Below the pieces are notes generated by a model, which was given only the letters and a program-made list of their open reading frames with translations, was not told the DNA's origin and did not search any database. A DNA stretch of 64,000 bases from Eledone cirrhosa (lineage: Eukaryota), in the NCBI GenBank assembly GCA_964016885.1, contig OZ024741.1, forward strand, positions 75,268,001 through 75,332,000, given 5' to 3'. Below, one piece after another: positions 16,374 through 62,298 of the stretch (the first letter of the stretch is position 1; each line of letters begins with the position of its first letter). Made by a program: the position numbers and the translations under genes.

Positions 16374-16415
<42 letters not shown>

Positions 16416-20820: not shown

Positions 20821-21590
<770 letters not shown>

Positions 21591-29317: not shown

Positions 29318-29321
<4 letters not shown>

Positions 29322-29332
29322 GAGTGCTGTAT

Positions 29333-29376
<44 letters not shown>

Positions 29377-29748
29377 ATACAGCACTCGACAAGTTTTTGG
29401 AGTAGATATACGATATTAAATAAATGGAAACTATATTTATAAATATATATGTATAATGAAATAAATATGGTTTTATAAATATAGTTTCCATTTATTTAAT
29501 ATCGTATATCTACTCCAAAAACTTGTCGAGTGCTTTATATCAGTTATATATATATAAATATATATATATATAACTGATATAAAGCACTCGACAAGTTTTT
29601 GGAGTAGATATACGATATTAAATAAATGGAAACTATATTTATAAAACCATATTTATTTCATTATACATATTTCAGGGATACCAAATTAAAATATGGTATG
29701 CCTTCATCAGACAAAATACAATATATAAACAGTTTTATAAATAATTTT
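29318..29748. repeat. Four alternating-orientation copies of the adjacent PLE terminus, partly separated by (TA)n
   Basis: +29318-29338, -29372-29443, +29447-29545, -29570-29748. The segments match each other, and the three longer ones overlap pLTR 32299-32437. Confidence 0.9.
29654..29718 (-). ncRNA. Hammerhead ribozyme in the inverted pLTR
   Basis: TATTTTGT-CTGATGA-AGGCATACCA...TGGTATCCCT-GAAA-TATGTA-TA-ATGAAATA. Confidence 0.85.
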
Positions 29749-29752
29749 ATAA

Positions 29753-32433
29753 ATGCTTTTACTTATTGAAAATAATAGCTGTGAACTAAATAGAAAAAGA
29801 AAACAAATTATACAATTTTTTAATTACCTTAATCTAAAAATAGAAATAGAGAATAACCATAGAATAGTCAATTTTCTGGATGTAACACTAAATCTCAACA
29901 CATGTCTTCACTATCCATTTCACAAACTAAATGAGAACTTGAATTATGTCAATTTTAACTCTAATCACCCCAGATCTGTTAAAAATACTTTAGTGAACTC
30001 TGTTCAAGAACGAATTTCAAGAATTTCATCTAATAAAAATATTTTTGATGAAAAAGCGCAGTATTACAATGAAGCGTTAGCTAGAGCAGGATATAGAGAT
30101 AAAATTAAGTGCATCGATAATAATAAGCAAACTAACCAAAATAATAACAATTTTAATTACGGTAACAACCTTAACAACTATAATAGAAAACATTACAATA
30201 ATTCCAAAAGCCGAAAAAGAAATAGAACTAGAAATATATTATGGTTTGTCCCCCCCCCCCCCCTTCTCACTAAATATTAAAACCCATATTGCTAAACTAT
30301 TCTTTAATGCTCTTGACAAACGCTTCCCTAGAACACATAAATATCACTCAATTTTTAATAGACACACTATAAAATTAACTTACTCGTCCACCAAAAATTT
30401 AGCACAAATTATTAACAGAATTAATAATAGGAATTTAAAACCTAACCAAAATACCAATAATAACCCAAACAATATTCAATTAAATAACTGTAACTGTAGA
30501 AATAAATCTAACTGTCCGTTAAATAACAACTGCTTAGCTAAAAATGTAGTGTACAATTGTAATGTTAAAACTAATTTAAATTCTTTTAACTATATTGGTT
30601 CCACCTCGATAGAATTTAAACTTCGCTTCAATAATCATAAGAATTCTTTCACAGATCCAAACAAAAAATCCTCAACTTCGCTATCTAGCCTACTCTGGCA
30701 CATTAAACGAGATAATGTTAAATATTCGATGATTTGGAATATTGTCTCAAAAGGTATTCCTTCTAATTCCTCATCAGAGAATTGTGATCTTTGTGTAGAG
30801 GAAATATTCTTTATATTAAAGTCCAAAAATTCCCTTAATTTAAGGAGCAATTTATTCAGTTGCTGCAGACATAGATTGAACTCAACGTTTAAATATAAAT
30901 ATAAATTTAAAATGTAGTATAATTAATTAAGAAATTTAGTTAATATATGAAACCTGATGATAAATCATTAGATTCCTTCACCTTTTTCTTTTTAAACTTT
31001 CTTCCTAAATATAAACAAGGATATAATAAACTACTCTAAAATGTATATGCTCCCAATGTATTAAATAAAATTTACGTAAGATAAATTCCTATACTAAATA
31101 TTAGGGCATCCGTAGAATCACTGGGTCTTCTAAATCTTTTAAATTATTTTTGGTTTTTTATTTGTTTTTTGACTCTGATAGCTTCTAATAACTTTCATAT
31201 GTCTACCCTTGCAATATCTTGTTTGAGATATAGGTAGGATAGATTTCTATAATAAATATATAAAACATATTGTTTTTAACTTGAGATACTCTATAGTGTG
31301 TTAAAGATATTTAATGCTTTGATATTTCTGTATTAATATATTGATATTTGATTATCTCTATACAAAGGCCATTTGTGTGTATTAACATGCATATAAAAGG
31401 TTTATAGAGTTTATTTATGTGTTCGTATATATGTCTGTATATATGCATAGCGATGCTGGAAAACTCACGCAGATATTTATTTATACATATATTTGTGTAT
31501 GTATGGTTGTGTGTGTATATGTTGATGTGTGGTGCAGATATGCATAATATTAAATACATGAACGGTAATCATATATGTGAGGACATGAATATTAATCGTA
31601 TTTTTATGTATAGATACTGTGAAATTTTTATAACACAAGAAATGTATAGAAGTGATCAAGTGAAATCATTTGTATGTCTATATTATTGACTGGAGTAGAC
31701 ATAATTTTCTCTTTTTTCAGAACGTACATATGCGTGTATATATATATATATACATATGTGTATCCGTATTTTTATAAATAGGGTAATTTTTTAAGGTTTT
31801 AACTCAGATTTTGATATATTGACCTCAAGGTTTTAAACTAAACATATGGTCATTATTGAACAATGTTATTTTCTCATATTATATATCTATGTCTCATTCA
31901 TGAATATTGATATTTACATTTTTATTATTCATTTCATATGAATTGTTAATTTAATTTAATATGACATGACGTAAAGTTGTCACTATATCCTCCCCTCTCT
32001 ATATAGTACTTCCTCTCTCTTGAGTTTCTCTATCTGTATGATGAATTATTATCTCTCTGTTGCTTTCTTTTATCTTTCTTATTTCTTTCTTTTTTCTTTC
32101 TTTTTCATTTCCTCCTATCTATTTATATATATCTTCCTTTTCTCTCTGTCCTTTTTTTCTCTCCTTCTCTCTCTCCGTTTTTCTTTCTCTCCGTCTTTTT
32201 TCTAACTGTGCTTAACACTACAACTAATAAAATAATTATAAACATCTCACTATCCAGACAGCTTCCAAAAGTAATGGTCGCTTCTAATAGGGTACGTCAA
32301 AATTATTTATAAAACTGTTTATATATTGTATTTTGTCTGATGAAGGTATACCATATTTTAATTTCGTATCCCTGAAATATGTATAATGAAATAAATATGG
32401 TTTTATAAATATAGTTTCCATTTATTTAATATC

Positions 32434-32437
<4 letters not shown>
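29753..32437 (+). mobile_element. 5'-truncated Penelope-like element (RT thumb + GIY-YIG; Hydra-clade-like), frameshift in the poly-C at ~30250
   Basis: NFLDVTLNL, SNHP, WF.PPFS, CNCRNKSNCPL (CxCx5C), VVY..YIGST..FKLRFNNH, CDLCVEE, CCRH. Stop at 30917, then ~1.4 kb AT-rich 3' region and an HHR-bearing pLTR ending in (TA)n. Confidence 0.9.
32329..32393 (+). ncRNA. Hammerhead ribozyme in the PLE 3' pLTR
   Basis: TATTTTGT-CTGATGA-stem II-GAAA-TATGTA-TA-ATGAAATA. Confidence 0.85.
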
Positions 32438-32470
<33 letters not shown>

Positions 32471-32472
<2 letters not shown>

Positions 32473-32750
32473 AAAGTGAGGTTTTTTTTTTTAAATGAAA
32501 AATAACCGAGGTGTCCTACACGAGTGAAAGTATAAGGAAAAAAGATGAAATCGAAAATGCAACTGGAGTCTTTTTTTTTTAAATATATATTTATTTGGTT
32601 CCTCAGATGTGAAAAAAGCCACAGACCCGCCTTCTCAACTCTACTTTTGAAAAGCAGAAGAACTGCGAAACCGGTAAAGGAAGCAAATAAATATATATTT
32701 AAAAAAAAAAGACTCCAGTTGCATTTTCGATTTCATCTTTTTTCCTTATA
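32471..32750. mobile_element. Fold-back pLTR-like insertion in (TA)n with a degenerate HHR (32641-32683)
   Basis: Arms 32531-32603 / 32678-32750. TTGAAAA-GCAG-AAGAA-CTGC-GAAA-CCGG-TA, with the core mutated from CTGANGA. Confidence 0.7.
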
Positions 32751-32822
32751 TATATATATATGTGTGTGTGTGTGTATATATACATATGTATATACATATA
32801 TACATTTATGTATACATATATA

Positions 32823-33222
32823 CATGATGGACTCTCTCATTGTATTTTGACATACAATGGTAAAAATGACCCTTTTGCTTTTCTTTTTTTACAGAGCTGG
32901 TAGAGCTGTTGAGCTACCCACTGAAATGAATTGTTTATAGTGGTGAAGGCTTGTGTTGGACCAGCCCCACCTTTTGGAAATTTTGATAACAAAGGATTGG
33001 TGCAAAAGTTTGCCACAGCCCAGTGAACAAAACACTTGAGGTATTGGATGGCCATTGACTCTCAAGAGTTTCTCTGCCCTTTTCTAGCAGGATTTGTTTT
33101 TCATCCTATAGGATGTCCAAAATTCCCCTCCTCACCAAGCAAGCTTTGTGGAGTTACCAATTTAGTCACTGATGACCCGATAATGTGACAGGTTGTACTG
33201 GACTACATGTTACCAGTAGCGC
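32823..33222 (-). mobile_element. Non-autonomous bipartite RTE-like derivative (related copies 44712-45205, 48143-48600)
   Basis: All three share the 5' motif CTGGTAACATGTA..C.AGT.CAACCTGT and a CCATCAT-type 3' end, with no RT between them. Confidence 0.55.
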
Positions 33223-34227
33223 ACAAAGGTGACCTGATACACCCACATATATATGTATAAATACTCGTTATCCCACTTGTGTACCTAAGAATTCTTATTT
33301 ATTATTCAATAGAATAACATTGCAAATATGTTTTAAATATATACATAAATAACATTACAAATACGTAAATAACATTATAAATTGCTCGCAATTCGTTCAG
33401 AAGGACATTACAAATATAATGTCTAAGCCGTGTAAAATAACACAATAATATAAATTCATTGAACAAAAATAATAAAGGAAAGAAAAAAAGGGGGAGGAAC
33501 AATTAACCACCAAGTGTGATAATCAGCTGCACCTCACACCTTAGGGGTTAACTGCACACTTTCAGGCAAGCCAACATGCTCACAGCATTACCATGGTTGT
33601 TAGTGAGGCTAACGTGCTGAAATAACCAGGCACCCTCATGGGTATCACCTGACACCTCAGTAAAGTGAGCTGCTACTATATTGTGTACATCGTATGGAGT
33701 TTCTACCTACTCCCTTTCTACATATTGAGCAGTGCTACTTCCCTAAAGGAATCAGGATCCTATCTTCTGTTCATACCAATGAAGAATTTTGGAGGGATTT
33801 GATAATATAACTAACTATCTAATTATGAAGCTGGTGTTTGAAACATAAATGAATAACCCACATAAAATTATGATGGTAGATTTTTTTTTTTTAGATACAT
33901 GTAAACTTTTAAAATAAATAGTTTTGTATTGTTGAACCAGGGGTTGTTTTATGGCTTTGATATCAGAATTGTTAGACAGCTGAATATGTTGCTTTTTTTA
34001 AGGAGCCAATGTGATTTTTCAATAATTTCCATTGTATATACATTGGACATAGTTATCTCTGAAAGCTCCCATTCTTTTTTTCTTAAATCTGAGTGTTTTG
34101 ACATTTACACACATCTGGGAGTTTTGATATTTTGATGTCAATGGTTTCCTGAAAAATCTGCAAAACAAAAAGTTGCTTTGCTGTGCAACAAAGAATGATA
34201 TGAATGCCAACAAGTCTTGTGCATATG

Positions 34228-34647
34228 TCTGCTGGACATCACCAGAGCGCGTTAGCCCCCTGGTGTCTGCATAGCTATGGCTTCCTAAAACCGTATTTCT
34301 TTGGAGATACGAAATTTCTATACATATTGTATAAAGCTATGCTTGAAGCGAAATCTTATTTCTTTTCTAGAAGTTGAGCCAACTTATGCAGCTTCATATG
34401 CAAATGAGATTAATCACCTCATTTACACAGACGAGAAAACTATATACTCTCGGCTGTCTTCTAGTCCAGCAGTCGCAAGCGGTGGGAAGGATCTCCTGAC
34501 GAAGGCCAGTTAAGCCTGAAATGCATAGATGGTTGTCCCCCTTGCTTCTGCTGGATATCACCAGAGGGCGTTAGCCCCCGGGTGTTTGCAAAGCTACGGC
34601 TTCCTAAAACCGTATTTCTTTGGAGATACGAAATTTCTATACATATA
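34228..34647 (+). mobile_element. Retrozyme-like element: 319 nt unit with ~100 nt terminal redundancy and one HHR
   Basis: Direct repeat 34228-34327 / 34547-34647, ends in TATATAT, no ORF. Confidence 0.75.
34491..34532 (+). ncRNA. Minimal type I hammerhead ribozyme
   Basis: CTGACGA-AGGC-CAGTTAA-GCCT-GAAA-TGCA-TA-GAT, palindromic ATGCAT stem III, short stem I. Confidence 0.75.
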
Positions 34648-35769
34648 TATCATCATCATCACCGTTTTACGTCCGTTCTTCATGCTAGCATGGGTTAGAT
34701 AGGTTGTCCTGTTGTGGGCAGTGTCCAGTCGGCTGACCATGTCTTGCTCATACGGGAACTGATTCTGGCTTGATTTCTACAGCTGGATGCCCTTCCTAAC
34801 ACCAACCTCATTTACAGTGAATGGTGAGTGCTTTTTTCCATGGCGCCTCCACGACCACTTTACAGTGGAATGATAGGGACCCCAGTCCTATCATCTCATT
34901 GTAAACACAATCAAATCTTTCATGGCGGTGGGTGGCTGAACTTGCCTGTAGAACAATGAGAGAGGGGGTGGAGCCGGTCAAGTGTTGAAAGTGAATTCTA
35001 TACAGCAAATTCTAAGGAGTGTGGAAGAAATTAGGCTAACTAGAAAGCAGGCGAAAAAAGAATTCTGGAGGAATCTGAGAGTAGGAAGTTATAAAAGTAA
35101 AACGTTAATAAATTGAAATTAAAAAATTAAAAAATAATAATAGTATTAAAAAATTAAATAATAAAAAATAATTAAAAAACTAGAGTCTAAAACAGCTGCT
35201 ATATTTTTAGCTGGTATTGCGTTTTCGGCCAATGCTATATTTACTGGGGTGGGGTACTGAGGGTACAAAAGCCCGATGGGCTGCTTCAGGGTAAGCGAAA
35301 GAGGAAAAAGGAAAAGGAAGAGGAGAGGGAGTGGAAGGAAGTGAGAAGAAGAGATAAAGGAAAAAAAAGAAAAGAAGTACATCTACCTATGTATACTGGG
35401 GTTTCCCCTATCTTGTTCGGCAAGTGGGGAAAATAAGGATGTTACAGCCATTGTCTACCCACCCGGGTCATGAAGGGGTTTGAGGGCGAGGTAAGTCCTA
35501 CGCAATCGGTGTTTACATGCAGTTACAAGTTCGTCTTTTGACCAATCCTTTTGACAACTACAATCTTCTCATATAAGGAATTACCCCTTGAAAAGTTGGG
35601 CTATTTATTACCACGCTAAAAATCTAATTTAGTCCAGAAATAGCCGTTGAAACGGCTTGAGCTCTGCCGTCGGGGTCTTGAACAGTTTCCTCTTACCCAT
35701 TTTAATACCCTAAGTATTGAGTACTCTGGTACATTATGGTCCACCTGGTTCCTTACCACACTTCCTTCG

Positions 35770-35814
<45 letters not shown>

Positions 35815-35866
35815 GAAGAATTAGGCACATATATATACACATATTATACACACATATATATATATA

Positions 35867-35902
<36 letters not shown>

Positions 35903-35959
35903 TATATATATATATATAAATACATATATATATATAAATATATACATATATATAAATAA

Positions 35960-36754
35960 TGTGGGTAATATTAAATAATCAATATAATCCAATTAAAAGT
36001 ATGATAGTAGCTCAATGTAAAATAACAAATATAATACAGAGCCGGAATACTTTATAAATAACAATCAAAGTGTGTTTAATAACATTTAATTACTAACGAT
36101 CGTTTCATCCAAGCACAAGGCTGGATTCATCAGAGTATAAATCAAAGGTTAGAACACATATAACATTGTTAAATAACATTGTGGGCATACCGTATATGGG
36201 AAGAAAGCAAAAATAATAGGTATTAACATTGATATAAGAGAGGAAAGCAAGAAGCACATGAAAAGGATGATCATATAAATATGATTAACAATCAGCAGCT
36301 AGAGGCATTAAGAAAACCTAAAAACAAGATGGTATAAAGAAAAGAAAAAAAGCTGCTATAAGGAATTTAAGCATAATTGTTTCTACATTTGGCACAAAGC
36401 CAGCAAATTATCCAGTGTATTACTGGTACTTTATTTTATCGACCCCGAAAGGATGAAAGGCAAAGTTAACCTCGGCGGGAATTTAAGCATAATGCAAGCA
36501 TATTATACATTGACAAATCTACATATAACATAAGCATTACAACAGTCTATAAATTCTAGTGCATGGATCAAATATAAATTTAACTTTAAGAATGTGAAAA
36601 TACATCTTCAAGGTATTTTACTATATTTATATTAAAGTTATCTATGTTCTAACTTTTGATTTATACTCCGATGAATATGGCCTTGTGCTTGGATGAAACG
36701 ATCGTTAGTAATTAAATGTTATTAAACACTCTTTGATTGTTATTTATAAAGTAT
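35960..36754. mobile_element. pLTR-like insertion in (TA)n with inverted arms (36047-36164 / 36637-36754), each carrying an HHR; later SINE B insertion in the spacer
   Basis: Minus HHR 36088-36139 CTGATGA-ATCCA...TGGAT-GAAA-CGATCG-TTA; plus copy 36661-36715 has CCGATGA. The SINE is flanked by a GGAATTTAAGCATAAT duplication. Confidence 0.85.
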
Positions 36755-36887
36755 ATATAGATATGTATATATATATATAATCATTAACATTTAACGTTCA
36801 CTTTCCCAGCTAACAAGAGCTAGACAGGTCTACATAAACCAAGTTATATACGATATATGTATATTTATATATATATATATATATATA

Positions 36888-38080
36888 TCATCATCATCAT
36901 CATCATTTTATGTCCACTTTTCCCTGCTTGCAAGGGTTGGACGGATCCTATTCAGCACAGCATCTCTCCACTTGTCACGGTCCCTTGTCATCTCCTCCGT
37001 GAGTTTCAGTGATCTGAGGTCTGCTCTCACAAGCTCCGCCCATGTTTTTCATGGTCTACCTCTACTGCGTCTTCCTTATACTGGGATTTCTTGGCACTTC
37101 TTTACCCAGCGGTCATCCTCCATACGCATCACATGTCCATACCATCTCAGCCTTCTCTCCTGCACACCACAACTTATCCCTCTTATACCCAGTTTCTTTC
37201 TCAACTCGTCTATGCTTGGTCGTTCACGCACATTGGCAATGCACATCCAACGGAGCATACTTGCTTCATTTCTCTCCAACCGTCGCATATCTTCTGCAGT
37301 TGCTGCCCATGTCTCACTACCATGCAGCATCGTGCATCTCACACAGGCATCATATAACCGGCCTTTCGTATGCAGGGAGACACCCTTCTTTGTCAACAGA
37401 AGAAGCAGCTCCCTACACTTCTTCCAATCCATCCTTATGCTAGATACTATGGTCTCGGAACAACCCCTCCCATACTAATCTGATCACCTAGGTCCTGGAA
37501 GCTATCAACTACTTCTATATAACCCACCTACATTGGAAAAATGTGTCTATCACTGCAATTACTACTGCCAACTTTCCCTGTACATCTACTGCATACATAG
37601 TTTTCCCTACCTGTTAGTTTGCCTGCTATCCCGCTACATCTCTTGTGTACCCAAGATCTGCATTGCGTACATTTTATGGAATTTATGCCAGTTCCTTTCC
37701 TACATATCGAACACGGCCATTTCCCCGATGGAATCAGAGTATTGTCCTCTCTTCTACTTATCAACACTTTTGTTTTAGCTATGTTCACCCTCAGGCCTCT
37801 TGATTCCAACTGCTGTTTCCATAGCCAGAATCTATTCTCTAGCTCCTCACTGATTCTGCTATAAGAACCAGATCATCAGCATAGAGAAGTTCCCATGGGC
37901 ATCCAGTCTTAAACTCTTCTGTTATGGTTTGGAGGATATAATGAACAAGAGCGGGCTGAGGACCGAACCCTGATGTATACCTACTTGTATCTGGAATTCC
38001 TCACTAAACTCCATTCCTATTCTCACTTTACTGACAGCACCCCTGTACATAGCTTGCACTGTCCTCACAAGCCATTCCTC
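36888..38080 (-). mobile_element. 5'-truncated RTE LINE, flanked by TA
   Basis: VGIHQGSVLSPLLFII, ELLYADDL, GLRVNIAKTK, WPCSICRKG..C..C..WVHKRCSG, RRLRWYGHVMRM, (GAT)n tail. Confidence 0.92.
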
Positions 38081-38083
38081 TAT

Positions 38084-38279
38084 ATATTGTTATACTTAGG
38101 GAGGGTAATATTGTTGTAATAATACTGTCAGAAATAATAAGAGAACACACTCCCTGTTTCGTTGGTTTTCACTTCGGTTATTATTTCTGGCAATATTATT
38201 ACAACAATATGACCCTCCCCAAGTATAACAATATTTGTTTTGACACACGATTTCATATCAAAAACCTTGCAATACAAAT
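38084..38279. repeat. Mini fold-back insertion in TA (arms 38084-38140 / 38178-38234)
   Basis: 57 bp arms with ~4 mismatches; the right arm extends ~45 nt further into (TA)n. Confidence 0.85.
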
Positions 38280-38536
38280 ATATATATATATATATATATT
38301 TGTATATATAAATATCTGTATGTTTTATATTCAATACATTCTCTTATATCTCCCCAAATTGAAATTTTGGATTAAGTTTAATATGTTTAATTACATATAT
38401 CAATTACTTGATAATTTATTAGCACATTTTATCCTTTTATTGCGATGTCTAAGTATTAGAGACAAATAACTTTGGAATTGATAATAGCTACTCTTTCAAT
38501 GTAGAGTAAATTTATCTGAATTTATGTGTATGTATG

Positions 38537-38570
<34 letters not shown>

Positions 38571-38655
38571 CGTGTGTATATATATACACATATACATATA
38601 TACATATGTATATATGTATATATCTATATATATACATACACACATATATATATAT

Positions 38656-38708
<53 letters not shown>

Positions 38709-39650
38709 TGCATACACATATAGACAGAGTAGTAAACAGTACAGTGCATTGTTTAATTACCAAATGAACATATCCCTCTCTATATATTAGGACAATACTA
38801 CAGGCTAATAATGACGCTAGAAATAGCCGCTTAAATTCAGATAAATCTACTCTAACACATCTGGATTTTCACATTCTATTGTAGCAAGCTACTTTCCTTT
38901 CGCGCATTGATACTCTTTCCGTTCGTGAAGTTAAGCCAATCGTGATCCGCGCACGGATATGTATTTTCAACTTCCCCACCAAACGGAGAATTTCCCGCAT
39001 CTTTTAATAAATTTAATCACTTTGCGTGTCAACTGCATAGGGTAAACATCTATTCTTATTTTGCTCCACAACCAACAGCCAATATACAATCAAAACAACG
39101 TAACCACGGGCCTGGCTTCTCACTTCAGCCAGTATACCTTGTCTTCTCTTCTAAACTCTTAATTTGTTTGATTCATTTATTTTGGCATGCCAACCCAGCT
39201 TAATCCAGCTCTTCTTAACCTTTGTTAATAAATTATGTAAAAACATGCCAAAGTCTTGTGATGCTATTTACCACAACCATTGTCTATAAATGTGATATGG
39301 AAATATTCTTTCCAGAGTTATATTCACAGCAGAGCAACAGATTATGAGACTTACAGCAGAACCTTAATTCAACTTACATTTATTGATATTATGAACCATA
39401 CCTTTCCAATTACAAACAAATACGTTGTCATTACATAATCTTGTAGATATTACTCACTGCTAAAAGTATTGCTATACATCTAAAATGGTGACCTCTGTTG
39501 ATACACAATACACAAAACAACACATATACAAATAATAACTATTATCAATAATTCTTTTTAACTGCTTCACTATTTTCTGAAGTTCACTATTTTTAGAAAA
39601 ACCTTCATGCGAACATTAATATGGTGATAATGTATATATATATATATATA

Positions 39651-39870
39651 GTTAAAAGAATAGAGGTGTAACACACAAGTTATTATATATTGGTAAACGG
39701 AATAGAAAATGCTGACAAATTGTTCACAGTTGAAAAATGGTTTAATTAGGAATAAAAGAGTATTAGTGATTGTATGGGTTAGTATTCAGTTGTACTCTTT
39801 TATTCCTAATTAAACCATTTTTCAACTGTGAACAATTTGTCAGCATTTTCTATTCCGTTTACCAATATAT
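39651..39870. repeat. Mini fold-back insertion in (TA)n (arms ~39684-39762 / 39793-39870)
   Basis: Apparently perfect ~78 bp arms; the left arm extends ~33 nt into (TA)n. Confidence 0.9.
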
Positions 39871-41269
39871 ATATATATATATATATTGAAGAGGACGAGG
39901 GAGAATATACTTTTATTTTTCTGTTTTGCAAGAAAACAATACACTCAGTAACTTTTGGAATAAATATTTCTATTAATACATTACAATATGCTGGATTTCT
40001 TGAAACCTTAAACCAACGCTAATGGTGCAGAACACATGCACATATTGGTGGTAGCAATCATGTGTCAATCTCATTTCACATGAATGTTAATTAATAAAAT
40101 GCCTCATTAGTTAATCAAGTGCATAATTAATTGATTGCTCTAGATAACAATGTAGTAAATGCAAGTGATAATATTTTGATATGTATGTAAGCATGGATTT
40201 ATTGAATTAGGGAAAACGTCAACACTTACATACATTTATGTCTTCATAAATGCACACCCACACAGTCATATATGTGTGAATGTATGTGTGAATGTAGGTG
40301 TACTTATGTATGTTTGTGCATGCATTGCAAGCAGGGAAAAGCGGACGTAAAATGATGATGATGATGATGATCATGATAAATAGATAATTAGATAGATATA
40401 GATATATATGTGTGTGTGTGTGTTAATGTATGTATGTGTGTGAGTATGTATGTATGTATGAATGTATGTATGGACCTGTAAATCCTGATGGAGTTGTAAA
40501 GGTGCCATAGAGATACAGTATGTTTTGTGCATTTTAAACCTGGCAATACCCATCCCATATCCAGGTCTGGACACAGCCAATTTCTTCCATAGAAGGATAG
40601 AGTGAGAGAGAATGATAAAGAGGAAGGGGAAAAGAGGCATAGAGGACAAACGACTGCAGTACTGGACTGATACCTTTTTATCCACCTCAAAAGGATGAAA
40701 AAGAAAAAGTTGACAGGATTTAAAATCAGAGAGTGCATAAAGCTAGAGCAAAAATTGTGAAGCATTCTGCCCAGTATTCTGATGGCTCTGCCACTTAGCC
40801 ACATTTATATCTATGACTATATACATATGTTTGCTCCTTTCTGAACCTTGTTTGGGGTCTCAAGATATGTAACCTTTGTGCGTCCATCCCTGACCTTCCA
40901 GGGCAGGTCGCAGACACATCGCCAGTTTTTAGAGCATGAAATGGAGACAGCAATACCTAAGGCCTGAACACGTCTCTTGTTAACTCACATGATGGACAGT
41001 GCAGAATGATTCTTTTTCTTCCCTCTCGGTATTTTTTCAAACCCGCAAAGACAAAGCCTTTTTAGAGGTGACCTTCACTAGCCTTGTCGTAGCTACATTA
41101 CTGGGTTGTGAGAATTTTCTTGGGAGCTGAAGGTGTCACCCATTGCTCCATCTCTCCTAGTAGTTTACCGCTGTTGGTCTGAGATTGCTTATTAATCCAG
41201 CAGGTGCTTGCTTATATCACAACTAACCATCATAACTGGTGACCATATTATTATCCACCCCTGTGACCT

Positions 41270-42119: not shown

Positions 42120-42340
42120 AAATTCCAGCCCAATCTTCTTTCCTGCACATTACATCTAATTCTTCTTATATCCAGCTTCTCTCTCATCTTATCTATGCTT
42201 TGCCTTTCAAATATATTAACTTTACACATCCATTGAAGCATGCTTGCTTCATTTCTCTCCAGCCTTTGCATATCTTCCGCATTCACTGCCTATGTCTCAC
42301 TAACATGCAACATCGCACTTCATACACATCTGTTATATAG
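42120..42340 (-). mobile_element. RTE LINE fragment
   Basis: NAEDMQRLERNEASMLQWMC..QERRLGW. Confidence 0.8.
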
Positions 42341-42705
42341 CCTCAAAACAAACGTTTGAGAGGTATTTTCAATTGTATTAAGAACACAGCAACTTCATTT
42401 TCAGGTAGCCAGACAAAACACACCCAATATACTCTGTAAAGAAGGTAATAGGGCTGCATCCAGCTGTAGAAAACTTGCCAAACAAACCCTCAAGAGAACT
42501 CTTCAGTTATATCCAAAACATGATAACATCCCTACTTCTGGTGCCATGATAAAACACACACATTGCATTTTACAATTTTCAGAAATGTATGCAAATGAGA
42601 TGTCACAGGCACCATCTAAGTACTGACTTGCCCTGTAATGCCCATCAAATGCTTGCTAACAGAGAAAATGGACATTAAATAATTTTGATTCTTTATATAT
42701 ATATA

Positions 42706-43085
42706 TAAAATAAAGTTAAATAAAAGTCAAATGATTAAAATTTAGCTTCGTTTATTACTGCTATATATATTTCAGTGACAGCCATCTTTGGCTGTGATCT
42801 CTTCAGGCAGTTTGAATTAGTATGGTATAGACAAGTACGTATACCTCAACAACATATGTACTTGTCTATACCATACTAATTCAAACTGCCTGAAGAGGTC
42901 ACAGCCAAAGATGGCTGTCACTGAAATATATATAGCAGTAATAAACGAAGCTAAATTTTAATCATTTGACTTTTATTTAACTTTATTTTACACTACTCCG
43001 GAGTAACCAAACCAACCTGCGCACTTCGTCGAGTGCTCCAGCCTGCATACTGAGGTGTTGGTATACAACCAACATAAACTCAAAA

Positions 43086-43086
<1 letters not shown>
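42706..43086. mobile_element. Near-perfect hairpin insertion (42706-42990) with HHRs on both strands (42757-42811 -, 42885-42939 +) and a 3' extension into (TC)n(TA)n
   Basis: ACTGC-CTGAAGA-GGTCACAGCC-AAAGAT-GGCTGTCACT-GAAA-TATATA-TA-GCAGT. Confidence 0.9.
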
Positions 43087-43127
<41 letters not shown>

Positions 43128-43129
<2 letters not shown>

Positions 43130-43794
43130 AGAGTATTGAAGTTTGCTTGAAGCATTGTGGAATAATAGGTAAATATCTTTAAGTCGTTTGGAAGCCTCGA
43201 CAATGCAAATGGGTAAATCTCCGGGTAACAAGATCCTGTGGTGGAGAGAGAGATGTAAGTGGGTGTACGTTGAGATGCGTGGTGTGTATAAGACGTGTAG
43301 AAGAATGAAGGAAAGAGTATAAAGGATAAAATTAAAATAACAACACAAGAGAGAGTTACCTTGGGAGAGATTTAATTGTCCCTATATATTTCGGATTCAC
43401 ATCCATCAACTGGGGTTTTTTTTTTTTTCTTTTTTTTTCTTTTTTTCTTCTTTTTTTTTCTTTTTTTTTCTTTTTTTCAAAACAACAAACAGCGGAGGAC
43501 GCGTTTCGCACCTTTCTAACAGACAACCTTTCCCCCACCCCGGAAACAACCCCCAGTTGATGGATGTGAATCCAAAATATATAGGGACAATTAAATCTCT
43601 CCCAAGGTAACTCTCTCTCGTGTTGTTATTTTAATTTTATCCTTTATACTCTTTCCTTCATTCCTCTACACGTCTTATACACACCACGCATCCCAACGTA
43701 CACCCACTTACATCTCTCTCTCCACCACCGGATCTTGTTACCCGGAGATTTACCCATTTGCATTGTCGAGGCTTCCAAACAACTTAAAGATATT

Positions 43795-43797
<3 letters not shown>
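43128..43797. mobile_element. Inverted pLTR pair (43169-43415 / 43551-43797) in (TA)n with a variant HHR
   Basis: ~247 bp arms. CCC-CAGTTGA-T-GGAT-GTGA-ATCC-GAAA-TATA-TA-GGG (the right copy has AAAA). Confidence 0.8.
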
Positions 43798-43883
<86 letters not shown>

Positions 43884-45639
43884 TATTAAAACTCTGTGAT
43901 TGTGTGCTTGTCTGTAATGTAATACAGCCTAAACGGCATATAATGGGAAAATACCTTGAAAGGAAGATGCCTCTGAAATGGGAATACAAATAGAATAAAA
44001 CAAGTTTCACGTAAATGCAAGCACAGGTTCCCAAGATACGGTTTTACGGGTACCTTCATAAATAGAGAGAGAAAGAGATAAAGGTTGTGAGAGGATAGAT
44101 TGAAAAAGAGACATAGAGAGAGAGAGAAGGAGACACAGAAGGAAAACGGAAGAGAGAGAGAGAAAGAGCTGGTGGTGTTGTTGAATGAAATTATAACATG
44201 TGACGTCAAAGAATCAAATACAGCATTACTCACATATATATATATACGCATACACATATATATATGTATATAAACGCACGCACACACACACACACACACA
44301 CATATATGGTCCTGCCAAGTTCATTTTACATTATATACATGTCTGTATATTTTCATTATTTGAAAATTATTTTTAAGTGAACATGATTTTTTAAAAAATA
44401 TCTTCAATTGAACGTGACCTGTTGGGTCATGGGTGGTCTAGTATATATATAAATTTAATACCCAATGAAACTAAGGTTGTTAATTTAAATCCATCTGAGA
44501 TTAAAGTTGAATTTAAATTAACAACCTTGGTTTCGTTCTGAATTAAATATTTATACTTTGCAATTCTCACTGTCTTCAACTGCAAGTATATTAATCCTCA
44601 GAGTACACCTTTGATTAAGCTTAGATTCCTGATTACTGTTGACCTTAAGTATGCATAGAGCTTTACACACCTTACCAAAAATAACAGTGGATTCCTCCAC
44701 TATAATTACTTACATGATGGCTGCAAACTCTGCTAAGAATACTGCAATCGCTTGTCAGATTATGGAGTTTAGTGCACTTTTAGGCTACAGCCAGCCACAC
44801 AAACCTGTAACAGATCCTGAACAAGCAATGCCTGTGCTTTGAAGGTTTTTTAAGTGGGAAAAGGCCTTGCACTCAACCAATCCTACTCTCTGAGCATCGA
44901 AAACACTACCCGAAAAGGAGAATTGGTCAACATCATCGGATGCTTCTGAAGCCGCAGTTTTATTTCAGAGTTTTCCTCTCCTAGAAAGGTGTTGTGACAA
45001 CAACTGGATGCCTTTCACTCCCAGAGGAAAAAAAATACTATTAGGATGGCCGTTGACTCTGTTGAGTTCCTCCACCCTTTGTCGGGTCTTGTATTTCATC
45101 CAGCAGGGTGTCCAAATATCACCCTCCTCACCAAGCAAGCTTGGCTTAGTTGCAACGACCCGACCATGAGACAGGTTGTACTGGGTTACATGTTACCAGT
45201 AGCACTTGTAGCGCTCTCTAGACAAAGGGAAGTAGCCAAAGTTACTTCTCGTGGAATTTCTAGAATACTCCTTGAACTTCCGTTTCAGAGATTATAAAAA
45301 AAGGAGCAAAGGACAATCTATCTCTTTTCCACCTCTTGGCCGCCTGGCCTTAAGGCCAGGCATGGTTACGCCAAAGGTATACACTCTCTTTCACCAACGG
45401 CTCTAGAACTGACCACACCAAGCACAGATGCTAAACTTTTTCTAATCCTATCCTATACCTCAGGATTACACCACATCATGGCACGAGGTACGTTTCACTA
45501 CCAAAATTGTAACAAGCTACTTCAATAAATGCAAATCGTTACTGATACACTTTTCCGAAGTATTCGTCATGTTTCAATTACTACATCGTCATTTTCTTTT
45601 ACATCTTCTAAACAAATTAAATTAGTGGTTGGCATGTAG

Positions 45640-47510
45640 TGGTATTTACTGGAGTGAATAACCCTATGGCCAATGCACTAAACACTCAAGAACGGCCTGA
45701 CATGCATACATACATCTGTTCCCCATTCTTGGATGATAGAGGCCCTCCGACTTACTAAAATTCTAGACATTATTATCAGAGCCATAAAGAAGCTGTCTTC
45801 TTCTTGGGCTAGAGAGAAGGAGAACTCTATTTCCACTGATAAAATGGAATATCACAGGGGTATATTTCAAGGAGAGAGTCTCTCTGTGCTGTTATTTATC
45901 CTGTCATTAAACCCCTAGTCCTTTTTGCTCAAGAAATGTGAAGGATACATCATTGTCTCACAGGAGGACAGAAATACAAATTTAACCCATAATTTATTCA
46001 TGGATGACCTGAAACTCTATACCAAGTACATAAATGGGATGAAGAAAAATGTTGACCTGGTTACAACGTTCTCAAAGGATATAGGAAAGGTGTTTGGCCT
46101 AGATAAATGCTCATATATGATTATAAAGTGAGGACAAACTACAACCCAATCTAGCAACATTTGTATCAATGGCCTAACTGTTTCACCGATATCTGATGAG
46201 GACTGCTACAAATACCTGGGGATAGATGAGAGTATATCCTATAATGATATTTGTAATAAGGAATGTGTAACCAGGGAATATTACTCCCAATTAAGAAAAA
46301 TATGGTCATCAGTAAAACAGTGGCTCACAATGTGTTTGCTGTGCCTGTCCTAACACCAACATTTGGAATACTCAAGTGGACGATAGACGAAATCCAAGCA
46401 ATTGATGTTAAATCTCGAAAAATTCTAAACAACACCGGAAACTTCCACATCAACAGTGACATAGACTGCCTCTACTTGAAACATAAGCAGGGAGGCAAAA
46501 TCCTAAAATCGGTCCAGACAACATTTACAAACCTCCAAACGAAAGAGCCCATCTATTGAACAAGTCTGTCTGCATGAGACAGATAAGATTATGAGAGTTG
46601 GGAAAGAACTCCTTGAAAGATACTCCCTGCAGGATAATCAAAAACTCACACCCAGGGAAATTGCCTAGCAATACCGCAGCGAATCCATGGAAGAAAAACT
46701 GCATGCTTATCAGCAAAAAATCATGCATGGATATATTGCCAGGAAGCTCCAGAGTGAGAGTAATATAGATAAACAAAGTAATCTATCTTGGATCAACAAC
46801 CGCTATATTGGCTCCCACTTTGAACGATATGCTTTTGCAATCCAAGAACAGGAGATTAGCACGAAATACCTGATTCATAAAAGAAATAGGGATACAGGCA
46901 AAACACCTAGATGTGATAACAAGTGCAGACTGCAGAATTAACATCGAAGATGTCACCCCTGTCATAAGCAGCTGTCCAAAGATGTCATCACAGTACTATC
47001 TACCTATGAGGCATGATGTAGTGGCCAAAACACTGTACAATGCAATTTGTACAAAAGCTAGCCCCGACAATAAACACATTAAAAGTTACAGCAATGTGGA
47101 AAACATACACATACATAATTTGAAAGAGTACTGGTGGAATGTTCAGTAAATATAAATGCAGGCATAACAGGCCAGATATAATGATATGGGACAGGGAAAA
47201 GAAGGCATGCACAGTTGTGGAAGTTAGCTGCCCAGCAGATGCCAATATAATATTAAAGATTAGCGAAAAGGAGAATATCTATGCAGAACTAATAAGAAAT
47301 CTACAGATAATCTACACTGACTATACCTTCAGATTTATACCTGTAATTATTGGGGCACTGGGATATGTTAGTAACTGCCTCAGTACAAATCTTGAGAAGC
47401 TGGGCTTCACAGAAACAGAAAGAACATGACTAGTTAGAAAATTACAAGTAAAATCCATTAATGGAACAGTAAAAATATGTAAAACAATCCAAAGCATATG
47501 CATCTAATAA
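45640..47510 (+). mobile_element. Degenerate 5'-truncated R4/Dong-like non-LTR retrotransposon (RT, CCHC, restriction-like endonuclease)
   Basis: RGIFQGESLSVLLF, HNLFMDDLKLY, FGLDKC, ISSCP..YLPMRHDVVAK, HNRPDI..VVEVSCP, IPVIIGALG. Confidence 0.88.
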
Positions 47511-47724
47511 CTCCATGTACACATGTATACATACAAAGCATATACACATATAACTCAAAACATCCACATCCACACATACAATAACATCCATACCTGCACA
47601 CATGCATGCATGCCAGCATACATATCTACCTAGTTGATATTGTGTAAATTCCAATGAGAGGGTCTTGTATCCATGTAAGAAACTGACTCTCTCTCTATTG
47701 GTAAACATTTGTGAAATTATAAAA

Positions 47725-48120
47725 CCAGAAGAACATGATGGCTGAAAACTCATGTTCAAGCATTGCCATCACCTGATAAAATGCTAAAAAATGTGAGGCA
47801 CAAATGTGGCTCATTAAACCAGCCAAAGACTTGCACCCTCTGGCACACAGCTGGCAACTATAGGCTCTTCTGGGACTTTCCATTGCTTGGTTCTGACTGT
47901 GTGTTCTAATATGTCTTTTAAGACCTCCCATGCTTGCACATTCCTTGCCACATTCCTTACACATTTTCAGATCATAATCTACACATGAGGTCTACTGATA
48001 TGACTTTGTTCATGTCTAATCAAACCAGCTTTGCTCAGGCAGACTTGACCACAGTGCTGGCAAACCAGATGTTGCTCAACAGCAGGCTGTTCAGAACAGT
48101 CCATTTTCCTCACCTTCCTT
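47725..48120 (-). mobile_element. 3' end of an RTE-type LINE with three C2H2-like zinc fingers
   Basis: CQHCGQVCLSKAGLIRHEQSH, CKECGKECASMGGLKRHIRTH, CQLCARGCKSLAGLMSH. The C.S..GL..H pattern is typical of RTE C-termini; frameshifted. Confidence 0.65.
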
Positions 48121-50250
48121 TTCATACATACACACATACATAGATGATGGCTGCAACTCAATTTCGAGTAATGCTCATTTAGCATGAGCATCACAGGCGT
48201 GGCTTTTTGGTCGTGCTAGGGACTTGCCTATGACCAGCAATACCATGCATCACAAAAAATGTCACATATCAAGCGATGCCTGTGCATGAAGTTTTTTAAG
48301 TGAGGAAAGTCTTTGCACGGCACCAATCCCTCTCTCTGAACATCAATTGCATTTGCCCAAAAAGAAGAACTCGTCTACATCATTAGATGCAAATGAAGTT
48401 TCAGGTTTTATATCAGTGACCTTCTCCTAAAGAGATGTCTTAATGAAAACTAGGATTCTCTCGCTCCATGAAAAAAAAAAAAAACTTTATTGGAACGCCG
48501 TTGCCTCTCCTGTGTTTCTCTGCCATTTGATGGGTTTTGTTTTTCATCTCGACCATGCACAGGTTGAACTAGGTTACATGTTACCAGTAGTGCTGAAAGC
48601 AACCTGACATACATACACACATACATATATACATGCCCCCCACCACCGCACACACACACACACATGCATACATACATAATAAATGATAACATATTCGTGA
48701 TTGAAATTACAAGTATAATTAAGAATTAATTCCCATTAAAATGGAATAGATTTTAATCAGGTGTGCGGAAATCTCTGTTAGTCTTCACTCTTGATTTCTC
48801 CTGCTATTGCCATTAGTAGCAGCAAAGAATATGTAATAATATATTAATTAATTCTGAAATTTTCCACCTATCTTGCCCTAATGGACAATAGGTCAATTTT
48901 GTTCTACACTCATGACTGATAACTATTATCACAAGTAGGATTGAGTATCCTTCCCTCCAACCCTACACATTTGAAATAATGAACAATGGAACCATCTAGA
49001 AATTAATATTGGAACCAAATAATCATTTAATAATTCTTTCATTACCAACATTTTATTAAGAACTTTTTGTATTTTTTCATTAGACCTTTATGCCTAGTTT
49101 GGAAGAGTAGTGTTCTTCAATCATCATCATCGTCATCATTGCCACATTTTACGTCCATTTTTCCATGCTAGACAAGTTGTCCTGTTGAGGGCAATGCTAG
49201 GTCAAGTAACCATGTCTTGGTTACTTGACCATACAGAACTGATTTTGGCTTGGTTTCTACAGCTGGATGCCTTTCCTAATGCCAACCTCATTTACAGGCT
49301 GTTCTTCAAGCCATGTGTGTATTAACGTTTCCAAATCAATACAGCCCAGTCTTAAGAATCAGAATGTCATACTAGTGGTATATTGGTCACATGATATATA
49401 GTGGTCACATTATGTATATTGGACACATTATACATTGCTTGTGGTCATAAAGGATCATGTTAGTAGTAGGAAATCATGGGTGCTTCATTTGAAATTTTAG
49501 TGTTATCTTCTGACATTAATAAAGCTGTATGGAAATATGTTGCAATGGCACCTTATTGTAAGTGAATGGTTAACTAATGGGAACATACTAAGCTTGAATG
49601 ACTGATGTAACAATATATATAAAAAAGGATACGATAAAGATCCCATAACTCCTTGTGAATTCATAGAGTCACTGTCATACAGCATGTTTAGGGCACTTTT
49701 AAACCTGGCAGAGCCCAACCCTCTCCAGGTCTGAACACAGCTGATTTTTTTATAGAGGAAGAATTGACCCCAGTACTGGATAGGTACTTTTTTTATTGAC
49801 CTTGTAAGGATGAAAGGCAAAGTTGACCACGGCGGGATTTGAACTCAGAGCACGCAATGAGGTGGGATGAATACCATAAAGCCTTCTATCCAACATCTTA
49901 ATGACTCAGCCATTTCACTGCAACAATACATATATATATATATATAATCTATTATGAATTTTGTCTGTTGATAACAAAATTGTCACACACGTGTCCAAGA
50001 AAATCTTTAGCTGTTGTTTCTAATTGAAAAAATGCTAGATACTGACATTTCTAACCACCCACCAACCCACATATATGCACATACATATCTTTCTTGTATA
50101 CTGTATACACACACACATGCTCTCATTGTATTATTTATCTGGCTTGACTGATTTTGATTATCAGCATTGTACATATATTACAAGTGTGTAAACAGAAGCT
50201 TTTAGGCTTCAGTAAAAAAGAATTCATATTATATATATATATATATATAT

Positions 50251-53200
50251 GGAGGAGGTTATAGTTCACTTGAAGCATTGTGTAATGAGGTATAAACGTT
50301 TGTATATGTATAATAAAGCCAAAACAATGCAGGTATGTACATAGAATAAAGAATGCAAATGCAAAAGATATTGTTGACAATTAGTCTTTTACCTTAGATT
50401 TATTTAAATGTCCTAAATTTTCGAGATAATATTTCTTCTTCAGAGGGAATAAAGTTGTCAAATCAGTGTTCTAAATAGCTTGCCAAGTCATGCTGACAGG
50501 AAATGGTATAGAGTATCTGTTCTATCTCTAATTTCAAAAAGTTAAGATTAGGTGGATAAAGAGTAGTCTCCCTTTAAGAGGGGTTTGTTTTTTTTTTGTT
50601 TTTTTTTTGTTTTTTTGTACATGCCTGTTTAAGTGTGTGGGAGAATGCATGCAGGTGTAAGTATGTGAGTGTGTGAGTGTGAGAAGATATGTCTATACGT
50701 AAATGTGGGGGATAGATGTTATCTCGTGTTAGAACAGGTTTAGTGTGTGTATGTGTGAGAGAGAATAAGTGGAGGTGTAAGCGTGTGTGTGTGTGTGCGT
50801 GCGTGTGTGTGTGGGGGGGGGTGTAAATATGGGGCTAGGAGCTCTATCAAGTTATAAATTGGGTGTTGAGTTCTAGTCTATTATTAATTGGTGGTTGTGT
50901 TTTGTCTATAATTAGTGCTTCCTTAATTCTAAGATTGCCGAGGTTTCTTTCCTTAGTTTCTATCCTAACTGTTATGGTTTTGTCGGTATTTTTGCATTTA
51001 ACTAGGTGTTTCTTAAATGGGGAAGCGTTAGTATTGAGGTGTTCTTTTATTCTTATGTGGAGTGGTCTTGTGGTGCTACCTACGTAGAAGTTGTTGCATT
51101 TGTCACACTCTAGTCTGTATACGACGTAAGCCTGGTGGCATAGGTCTGTGTCGTTGATGGGGCAGTTGGCTAGTCTGCAGCAGTTGTCATATCTGGTGGA
51201 GTGTCTTTTGGTTAGCTGACAGCGTAGAGAAGGACCTGAGTGGGCCAGTTGGATATCTAGTCCCTCTCGTCTGATAGCTCTGCGGATGGCTGTTGTTGTT
51301 TCGTCACTGAAGTGTGGGAGCTTCAGGAAGCAAGTGTTAGTGCCTCGGGTGTGGTGTCCTCTGTTCTTTCTGGCACGGTTTGTGGTGGATGTCGTGTATC
51401 CGTTCAGTTTGAGTACTTCCAGGAAATGTGTGGTGTGTGTGTCTCGGTCTCAAGCGTCGGAGCATTTGTTCCGGATACGTGACAGTTCGTTCCATATGTA
51501 TCCGAACTTGGCACCGAGTGGGAGGGCTGATCTGAAATGTACGAACAGGTCCCTGCTGGCGGCTTTTTTATAGAAGCAGGTGTGGATGTTGCCTTCCTCT
51601 GTTACCCTGAGTTGGAAGTCCAGTAGGGATAGGGATCCGCGGTCATCGGGGTGTTCCATGCTGAACTTTATACTGGCGTCCATGCTGGAGAATGTTGTGC
51701 ATATTTTATCTGCCTCCTCACGTGATGATGTAAGGATGAGTATGTCATCTACATATCGGGTGAAGAAGGTATGGGAATGGCAGGTGTTGAGGGCTCGGCA
51801 TTCTAGCTGGTTCATGTAGGTGATGGCCAGCAGGCCCGATAGGCTGGATCCCATGGGTAATCCTGTTGTCTGTCTGTATGTGTGGTGGTGGAAGGTGAAG
51901 TACGTGTTGTCTACTGTGAAGGACAAAAGCTGGTGTATGTCCGTCGGGTGGAGGCCGTAGCAGTGGTTGTCCTCTGCGACCACGCAGTCCGTCAATAAAT
52001 CGACAGCTGGATGAGCGGGGACTGTAGTGTAGAGGGAGACAACGTCGAGGCTAAAGGCGTAACTATTTAGTTTAGGTTGTTCTGGCTGGAGTTGGTGTAG
52101 TCTACGTATAACTTCGTCGGAGCTACTGACATGCCCGGGAAAGGTGGAGAGTAGAGGCTTGAGGACCTGGGAGAGGAGCCAGGAAATTTTGTATAGGGGT
52201 CCTTCTATGCTAGAGACGATGGGTCTTATTTGCGTATTAGTGCTATTCTTGTGGGTCTTGATGAGGTGGTAGAAAGTGGGCAGTCTGCTATTTCTAGTGG
52301 TGTAGTTGAGCTTAACTTTATTAGGGAGTTGTCTTCTCCTGCAGATATCGAACCAGATGGAGTTGGTCTGTTTTTCAATCTGGGCTGCAGTCATGTCCGG
52401 GATATCTGTGTGTAATTCATTGTCGCTTAGGTGTTCAAAGGCTAGGTTGTTGTATGTGGCTTGAGAGATGACCCAACACTCTTTACCTTTGTCGGATGGT
52501 AAGTATATAAGTTCCCTATTCCGTAGGTGAGGTTAGGGGCTATCTTCTTCTGTTTCCGTAAGATGTTAAATACGGAATGTTTTAGCCTCGAGAGTTTTTC
52601 TTCAAGCTCGCGGTTGGCAGGCGGTGGACAGAGTGGGCGATCCAGTTGGTATATCGGGAATCTGGGTTTGATAGATTCCGTGGTGTTGTTGCCGAGAGTC
52701 GATGTCCATTTTAGTTGGTAGGCAGCCCGACAGAAATTCGTTTCTATGTCGAGCCATAATTTGTCGTCCAGTCTCTGTTTCAATATGAACTTGGGGCCCA
52801 GGCTGAGGAGGTCTAATTCCTCTCGGGAGAGGGATCTTGTCAAGTCTGTGACGAGGTGTTTTGCGTCAGGTGTGTTGTTGGTCGGGGCGCCGCTAGGTTC
52901 GGTGTTGGTACCGTCTTGTTCGTCTCTGTTGGTGTTTAGAGTTGGGATGTTGTTAAGACAGTTGGCCGTCCTGAGTTTGAGAAATTTTTGCGTTAGACGT
53001 ATTTTCTCGTAGTCTCGGCGATGGTGGTATGACCTGTCTATAGCGTCGGAGATGACTCTGGACAGAGGTTCTGGGGTTTCAGCGAGTTGTGGTACAAGGC
53101 TGGAAATAGTTCGTATGTGTTGTTGTAGCGTGCGGTGTAGGTGTTGTAAAAAAAAAAAAAAAAAAAAAAACCCTCTTAAAGGGAGACTACTCTTTATCCA

Positions 53201-53462
53201 CCTAATCTTAACTCTTTGAAATTAGAGATAGAACAGATACTCTATACCATTTCCTGTCAGCATGACTTGGCAAGCTATTTAGAACACTGGTTTGACAACT
53301 TTATTCCCTCTGAAGAAGAGATATTATCTCGAAAATTTAGGACATTTAAATAAATCTAAGGTAAAAGACTAATTGTCAACAATATCTTTTGCATTTGCAT
53401 TCTTTATTCTATGTCCATACCTACATTGTTTTGGCTTTATTATACATATACAAACGTTTATA
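50251..53462 (-). mobile_element. Penelope-like element, near full coding length, with inverted HHR-bearing pLTRs (50291-50585 / 53171-53462) in (TA)n
   Basis: LSLGPKF, PSDKG, LIKTHK, IRPIVS, SLDVVSLYT, GLPMGSSLS, YVDD, then in-frame past one TGA (51450) to VVY..CDKC..YVGSTTRPLHIRIKEH..KH..KEA..IN, stop at 50847. One frameshifting deletion near 52525. HHRs at 50409-50449(-) and 53303-53345(+). Confidence 0.95.

Positions 53463-61245: not shown

Positions 61246-62283
<1,038 letters not shown>

Positions 62284-62298
<15 letters not shown>

Follow-up and report, generated by a model that had tools for sequence, protein, structure and literature searches.

Background

The insertion unit described for Penelope-like elements (PLEs) consists of an inverted, 5'-truncated copy of the pseudo-long terminal repeat (pLTR), a tail on one side, a target duplication, and a palindrome at the junction (PMC8557442, PMC3846280), and how the inverted repeats and the tail on one side come about is a question that PMC8557442 describes as open. 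In the in vitro work reported for PAc (Poseidon of Anolis carolinensis), both strands of an AT-rich target are cut and extended, two internal sites, which correspond to the ends of the tail, serve as starts of reverse transcription, the protein is predicted to form a dimer, and hammerhead cleavage is not needed (PMC11167929). Here, we compare these descriptions with a 64,000-nucleotide (nt) window of the Eledone cirrhosa genome (contig OZ024741.1; G000:C2:75268001-75332000 in a 3.0-Gb assembly), in which eight head-to-head fold-backs, representing families A to H, lie between positions 29572 and 53462.

The fold-backs are PLE insertions of the published layout. Counts over many genomic copies make it very likely that they arose by double priming, in which both target strands primed complementary DNA (cDNA) in one event, whether on one RNA or on two. 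We also favor, with distinctly less assurance, a single RNA primed from both strands at two fixed internal sites by a dimer that cuts both strands. The counts come from 450 loci (L001-L450) of the eight families, a small part of each family, obtained by best-match DNA searches, from the first listed pattern matches on contig C1, from opposite-strand pattern pairs, and from the surroundings of single matches. The first 30 family H loci were found with the tail in the query, families A, G, and C were searched with body-only queries, and family E loci were collected by pattern search.

The fold-backs of the window

The arms of the fold-backs in the window are 93 to 99% complementary. In each of them one arm ends 41 to 99 nt before its partner and then merges into (TA)n; the additional stretch of the longer arm is the tail. 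The features are as follows, with a slash marking the short end.

29318-29545: family A stubs, secondarily rearranged, consisting of a 22-nt tail piece, (TA)n, and a small head-to-head fold-back with both arms ending at a mid-tail TA site
29572-29748, minus strand: inverted 5' pLTR copy of family A with a partial tail
29749-32439, plus strand: 5'-truncated family A PLE with Hydra-type motifs and a tail-less 3' end, ATCGT/ATAT
32337-32377, plus strand: minimal hammerhead-like core in the family A pLTR, from a motif scan, with no match in Rfam
32471-32750: family B fold-back, Neptune-type via an open reading frame (ORF) linked at another locus; left arm tail of ~60 nt, short end TTATA
35957-36754: family C fold-back; left arm tail of ~90 nt, short end AAAGT/AT, hammerhead-like core near 36668-36698
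38084-38279: fold-back of family D; left short end, right tail of ~44 nt, divergent reverse transcriptase (RT) linked in one locus
39650-39869: family E fold-back, Neptune-type; left arm tail of 41 nt, short end ACCA/ATATATA
42706-43087: Hydra-type fold-back of family F; left short end that pairs by 1 nt, right tail of 99 nt, hammerhead-like core at 42890-42926
43127-43797: family G fold-back; left tail of 41 nt containing the ORF start codon, short end TTTAC/ATAT with no pairing (a counter-example to TA priming)
50251-53147, minus strand: 5'-truncated family H PLE with RT at 51450-52532 plus a C-terminal GIY-YIG domain at 50847-51449, frames broken
53148-53462, plus strand: inverted 5' pLTR copy of family H, tail-less, end ACGTTT/ATA, hammerhead-like core at 53310-53334

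A first-pass annotation, made from the letters of the window, had drawn attention to six short arms that stop where the element itself reads TATA or TAT, and all six ends were located at or within a few bases of the places it gave. They are ATCGTATAT in the family A copy (32431-32439), which merges into (TA)n, CCTTATA (32744-32750), AAAGTAT (36748-36754), CCAATATA (39862-39869), ACGTTTATA (53454-53462), and the minus-strand end at 38084. In the fold-backs it cited, the partner arm does run on for ~41 to 99 nt past the short end. What it missed is that this layout is the published inverted pLTR with a tail. Nor is the inverted 5' copy the short arm in every case. The fold-back at 29572-32439 has its tail on the inverted copy, which is short, and none on the main copy of 2.7 kb, whereas at 50251-53462 the arrangement is the opposite, with the tailed 3' end of family H at 50251 and the ORF start codon within its 43-nt tail.

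Identification of the families as PLEs holds, on sequence grounds, for most of them. Family H matches Pfam models for RT (PF00078, E = 1.6e-15) and GIY-YIG (PF01541, E = 8.7e-7), and in family E both domains are found by Pfam in a single locus (L413). Families G, B, A, and F were tied to RT and GIY-YIG by tblastn and motifs, and in H, E, G, B, A, and F the two domains are collinear with the terminal repeat. Family G is ~55 to 60% identical to family H, and one family B locus (L452; L451-L470 were used solely for the ORF search) holds a 52 to 53% identical relative of the family E domains. Family D showed a weak RT match (22%, E = 2e-13) in one of seven long loci, and no ORF was linked to family C in seven long loci.

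Clade assignments for A, F, E, and B are by motif only. The Hydra clade is defined in PMC8557442 by a CxCX5C linker, the lack of CCHH, and flanking CxxC and CxH motifs. Families A and F carry its marks: a CxCX5C linker, no CCHH, CxxC and CxH near the C terminus, and (TA)n as target. In the window the broken family A ORF pieces at 29753-30917 retain the CxCX5C linker and a GIY-YIG-like region without CCHH, and they gave no Pfam match. Families E and B have Neptune marks, a CX2-5CxxC linker and the CxxC of CCHH in GIY-YIG, in the translations of L413, L452, and L453. Families G and H have the CCHH cysteines and a reduced linker, a pattern that appears Nematis-like. The seven families searched by pattern are large in this genome: exact-pattern matches numbered 1,531 for H, 2,530 for G, 2,876 for D, 3,940 for F, 8,341 for E, 9,532 for A, and 10,949 for B.

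Probable priming of both target strands in one event

An interrupted target duplication touching both junctions was readable in 20 of 189 pairs of arms, 12 of them with a length of 12 to 15 nt, compared with 2.0 (maximum, 5) when partners were shuffled; in pure (TA)n such a duplication is unreadable. A duplication with element sequence joined at both of its ends implies 3' overhangs on both strands. The same count bears on a rival reading, that two elements inserted independently into the same (TA)n or that the fold-backs are artefacts of assembly. (TA)n is indeed a hotspot, nesting is common, and the window also contains some nearly perfect, unrelated palindromes of the tail-to-tail kind. Against independent insertion, one duplication spans both ends, the coupling of long and short ends described below holds, haplotypes are shared, and the arms differ by 1 to 7%. 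Against an artefact, the short-end junction of family E occurs in independent short-read contigs (39 each in X1 and X2, which represent one sample, plus two other organisms); among these contigs there was neither one spanning an insertion of the window nor an empty allele. We give this rival hardly any credence: independent insertion is ruled out for the class, and single cases are possible.

The inner lengths of the two arms are approximate, 27 pairs lack a resolved value, and the lengths for family H come from direct BLAST. In 164 pairs the tailed arm was longer by more than 20 nt in 53, the tail-less arm in 49, and the two agreed within 20 nt in 62; differences above 300 nt favored the tailed arm in 16 pairs and the tail-less arm in 11. 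A tail-less arm that is longer inside cannot come from a single cDNA folding back. This speaks against a snap-back, in which one cDNA begun at the tail copies itself back as far as an internal TATA that anneals to the other (TA)n end, or, in a variant, in which the endonuclease trims one tail at TATA. Such a scheme would explain the concordance of the arms, the TA at the short end in seven of the eight families, and the 44 variants that two partner arms alone share. However, it needs a tailed arm at least as long inside as its partner, contrary to the 49 pairs above, to the 11 with a large difference, and to the copy at 29572-32439. Later central deletions could rescue some of these cases but not the near-symmetric counts. 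The family G ends without TA do not suit it either, and trimming would not leave the duplication intact beside the short end. We regard a snap-back as very improbable.

Many centers are perfect palindromes without a spacer, lying at GATC in family E and at CATATG in family F. Zero-spacer centers leave no loop for single-strand folding and fit the annealing of two 3' ends. They thus count against self-priming on an antisense transcript at the inverted-junction palindrome, followed by endonuclease processing of the ends and integration, as set out by Arkhipova et al. 2013 (PMC3846280). That proposal agrees with the clustering of junctions at palindromes, with inner ends lying within 4 nt of each other in 39 of 164 pairs, and with a haplotype common to both arms. 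Yet both outer ends look like primer junctions, with a fixed TA phase, 1 to 3 nt of jitter, occasional extra bases, and an intact duplication, and sense RNA is reported to be extended from both target strands in vitro (PMC11167929). Self-priming therefore seems improbable to us.

Double priming is well supported by these observations, and snap-back and independent insertion are not. The view of the first-pass annotation that both target strands prime and that the same stretch is copied twice is borne out by duplications spanning both ends, by either arm being the longer inside, by palindromic centers without a spacer, and by arms that are closer to each other than random family members are.

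Two fixed internal starts, probably used one per strand

Of 211 head-to-head pairs in the eight families, 197 remain when 14 with an arm that reads through or is unreadable are set aside. A tailed end is joined to a tail-less one in 190 of these 197, while 6 are tail-less twice and 1 is tailed twice; leaving out the family H loci selected by tail gives 174 of 181. Since the two kinds of end occur at about the same frequency, only about half of the pairs would be mixed if each end were chosen independently.

The ends themselves are fixed within each family. The modal short start was used by 40 of 40 ends in E, 64 of 69 in A, 59 of 67 in H, 22 of 28 in F, 23 of 32 in D, 12 of 18 in C, and 7 of 11 in B. 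In five families (A, E, F, G, and H) there are read-through copies in which template sequence extends beyond the long end; both starts are therefore internal, and the tails of families G and H contain the ORF start codon.

Some fold-backs are stereotyped at their inner side as well, with both arms stopping at the same base, ~192 nt inside in family E (L411-L430) and ~198 nt inside in family F (L431-L440). This suggests that the RNA has a defined 5' end in the pLTR, at which both cDNAs run off.

TA pairing is a bias and not the cause

Pairing was computed for primers ending in ATAT against the template at the modal start. At the short starts it could reach 3 nt in H, 4 in A, 3 in B, 2 in C, 4 in D, 7 in E, 1 in F, and 0 in G, that is, at least 2 nt in six of eight families. 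The sum of 24 nt compares with 6.3 expected from local sequence (p ~ 8e-4); the p values for pairing are indicative and optimistic, the families being partly related and each supplying one modal value. Long starts can also pair, with 6 nt in A, 2 in E, F, and G (0 at the second site of G), and 0 in H (p = 0.017), and the long ends of H jitter across several nucleotides without pairing.

Of the 47 short ends of family G, 27 have no pairing, 16 are shifted by a few nucleotides to nearby AU (1 to 4 nt), and 4 are of other kinds. After TTTAC the other TA phase occurs in none of the 47, and the cuts are therefore likely to fall at T^A. Two fold-backs within the range of the first-pass annotation, but uncited by it, fit the TATA idea poorly, that at 43127-43797, where the template lacks TA, and that at 42706, with its single paired nucleotide. 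The start is thus fixed by position, and pairing is optional and only tunes the register; TATA priming is a real bias and not the cause. The enrichment of TA motifs at short starts that the annotation anticipated is present, but its statement that the second strand primes at an internal TATA holds in part only: both starts are internal, the long starts pair as well, pairing can be dispensed with, and the sequence gives no order to the two primings.

One RNA or two

The annotation had further proposed two RNA templates, delivered by dimers of a hammerhead ribozyme. At subfamily-diagnostic, non-CpG columns of 188 pairs, the two arms carried concordant alleles in 951 of 979 comparisons and discordant ones in 28, where random pairing would give 380 and background mutation ~15. 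Divergence within pairs was below that between pairs in all eight families (for example, 1.3% versus 6.9% in A and 2.6% versus 3.5% in H). Arms no closer than random family members, the result that the annotation had named as one that would refute it, are thus not what the class shows. The strict pairing of a long with a short end, taken together with this concordance, favors one RNA over two and is most simply explained by one RNA with two sites.

Several results weigh against a single RNA. In one family H insertion (L038 and L039) the arms are 5.3% apart, as far as random copies (median, 5.0 to 5.5%), which leaves an exception to the closeness of arms seen in all eight families, and in another (L021) they differ at a linked cluster. 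Early gene conversion between arms could itself produce concordance, and for some long arms no other copy is as close as the partner arm (in family G, L373 has 0 mismatches in 372 nt). Collision on one RNA might make tail arms stall at the short start, yet only 19 of 306 stop within 15 nt of it, several of these probably being alignment failures, and there is no clear excess. A direct repeat of the 40 nt that follow each start is present in family A (p = 0.0005) and speaks for one RNA, but families E, F, G, and H gave no significant repeat or hairpin there, so that one of five families is significant. Finally, one RNA and two RNAs of the same source locus look alike in sequence.

The rival reading has two RNA molecules in an asymmetric complex, one for each start and nearly always from the same source locus, with hammerhead dimers as a possible means of pairing them. 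It would explain full overlap without strand displacement and would accommodate the one or two family H insertions whose arms are of different haplotype; subfamilies active at different times would yield concordance in any case, and minimal PLE hammerheads have been proposed to act as dimers (PMC4209133). A symmetric dimer with two RNAs, however, predicts long with long or short with short, found in only 7 of 197 pairs, and the discordance of 28 in 979 is near background. Hammerhead-like cores, recognized by motif and putative in activity, occur in A, C, F, and H, and none was found in the 150 to 300 nt scanned for B, D, E, and G, nor did Rfam give a hammerhead match in the window. Naiads, which share the PLE layout, are described as lacking canonical hammerheads (PMC8557442), and ribozyme catalytic mutants are reported to insert normally in vitro, making cleavage dispensable (PMC11167929). 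Delivery of two RNAs by a ribozyme is unsupported, and we consider two RNAs unlikely, though a reading to be taken seriously.

A C/T hot site in hammerhead stem II of family A was tried as a marker of two templates and rejected. It was discordant in 6 of 9 pairs and, in a larger sample, in 6 of 37 (31 CC, no TT); the 6 all came from loci chosen for likeness to the T arm of the window, and we attribute the signal to ascertainment.

Other features of the window and the sample

The family A copies in the stub at 29318 end at the mid-tail TA site, at neither of the two starts of the family, and 0 of 127 sampled family A ends fall there; the piece at 29318-29572 is a secondary rearrangement. Elsewhere, different PLE families adjoin back to back within one (TA)n (F and G at 43087-43127, A and B at 32440-32470, and also at L156, L211, and L232), which implies that each insertion renews the target for the next. 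At L301-L305 (G000:C1 near 34.85 Mb) there is a tandem array of ~315-nt units, each a family D fold-back plus (TA)n. A decayed second PLE-like ORF lies on the minus strand at 54667-55966, with RT and endonuclease-like pieces recognized by eye and no Pfam match.

Long or perfect palindromic arms persist in this genome (2400 nt at 0.3% in L388, 1547 nt at 0.4% in L360 and L409, 372 nt at 0% in L373), and these may reflect recent insertion or conversion between arms. Tail-to-tail inverted duplications centered on (TA)n occur at 61240-62303 (1 mismatch in 463), which includes a SINE-like (short interspersed element) end and other DNA, at 29447-29670 (0 in 99), and at 20954-21588 (9 in 264). Either assembly fold-backs or a snap-back at the DNA level may account for them, the latter from a (TA)n 3' end that is self-complementary and may have been left by a PLE cut. 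Two further near-perfect inverted duplications are not PLE fold-backs, at 1666-2309 (7 mismatches in 313) and at 14412-17409 (8 in 1007), the latter within a direct and inverted complex with tRNA-derived SINEs. Degenerate tandem repeats at 22692-23516 (units of ~135 to 160 nt) and 62436-62989 (49 nt) are relatives of a SINE-like repeat that is abundant and has (ATC)n at its ends.

A proposed model for double priming on one RNA

On the single-RNA reading that we favor, a protein dimer would cut both target strands ~12 to 15 nt apart in (TA)n, probably at T^A, leaving 3' ends in AT. Both 3' ends would then prime reverse transcription on one sense RNA at the two fixed internal sites that bound the tail, one starting at the distal site and the other 41 to 99 nt upstream. 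A small number of A-U pairs (0 to 7 nt) between primer and RNA would pull the start into register wherever the RNA sequence allows them, but they would not be required. The enzyme at the distal site would read the same RNA again, displacing the first cDNA as it went; PLE RTs are not known to have RNase H. The two antisense cDNAs could then anneal at their 3' ends through a short palindrome or microhomology and be filled in.

More tentatively still, and with a little less than even confidence, we suggest that PLE integration in general proceeds by obligatory coupled double priming, in which one dimer sits across the tail of a single RNA with two repeated binding signals, cuts both strands ~12 nt apart, and reads that RNA twice, the families that target (TA)n having evolved short, telomerase-like alignment patches (AU runs) at their start sites. 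If this is true, a single step would yield both the inverted pLTR and the one-sided tail, as a form of twin priming in which the overlap is full. We found no twin-priming account of PLE inversions in the literature searched, in which subscription papers and older PLE reviews were poorly covered. To a specialist, double priming would seem plausible rather than startling. The only in vitro study leaves the later steps unvalidated, and the present counts narrow the options. They also qualify the claim that PLE initiation is homology-free, and because PLE RTs are the sister group of telomerase, a short alignment patch would be of evolutionary interest.

Comparison with known systems

The fold-backs resemble the published endonuclease-positive (EN+) PLE unit (Fig. 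2 of PMC8557442; Pen2a_Av in PMC3846280) in the inverted head-to-head copy, the tail at one end on either side, the target duplication, the junction palindrome, the (TA)n targets, and, in G and H, a tail lying over the ORF start. They differ in tail length, 41 to 99 nt compared with 30 to 40 nt, and in duplications that are mostly 12 to 15 nt compared with 8 to 10 nt. The accounts of that unit in the two papers attribute the tail to endonuclease resolution or antisense self-priming, and contain no count of long and short coupling or of arm haplotypes.

For PAc, the starts are reported as non-homologous to the target, whereas seven of eight short starts and most long starts here can pair by 1 to 7 nt, with family G showing that pairing is optional. 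In the main text of PMC11167929 the two starts are not related to the inverted copy, and no test of strand coupling is given. The layout was known, and it had already been shown in vitro that both strands are cut and extended and that there are two internal starts; the near-strict coupling of long and short ends and the evidence for a single template are what our counts add.

The twin priming of L1 (Ostertag and Kazazian 2001, cited in PMC12016303) is described as priming from both strands with a 5' inversion between duplicated target ends, as here. One of its starts is the poly(A) tail and the other an internal site that varies; its cDNA overlaps are short (median, 12 bp). In contrast, both PLE starts are fixed and internal, 41 to 99 nt apart and without poly(A), and the overlap is the whole shorter arm, from tens of nucleotides to 2.4 kb. 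The PLE insertions thus appear to share with L1 the priming of both strands in one event, and in place of a variable second site chosen by homology they have one that is fixed in each family.

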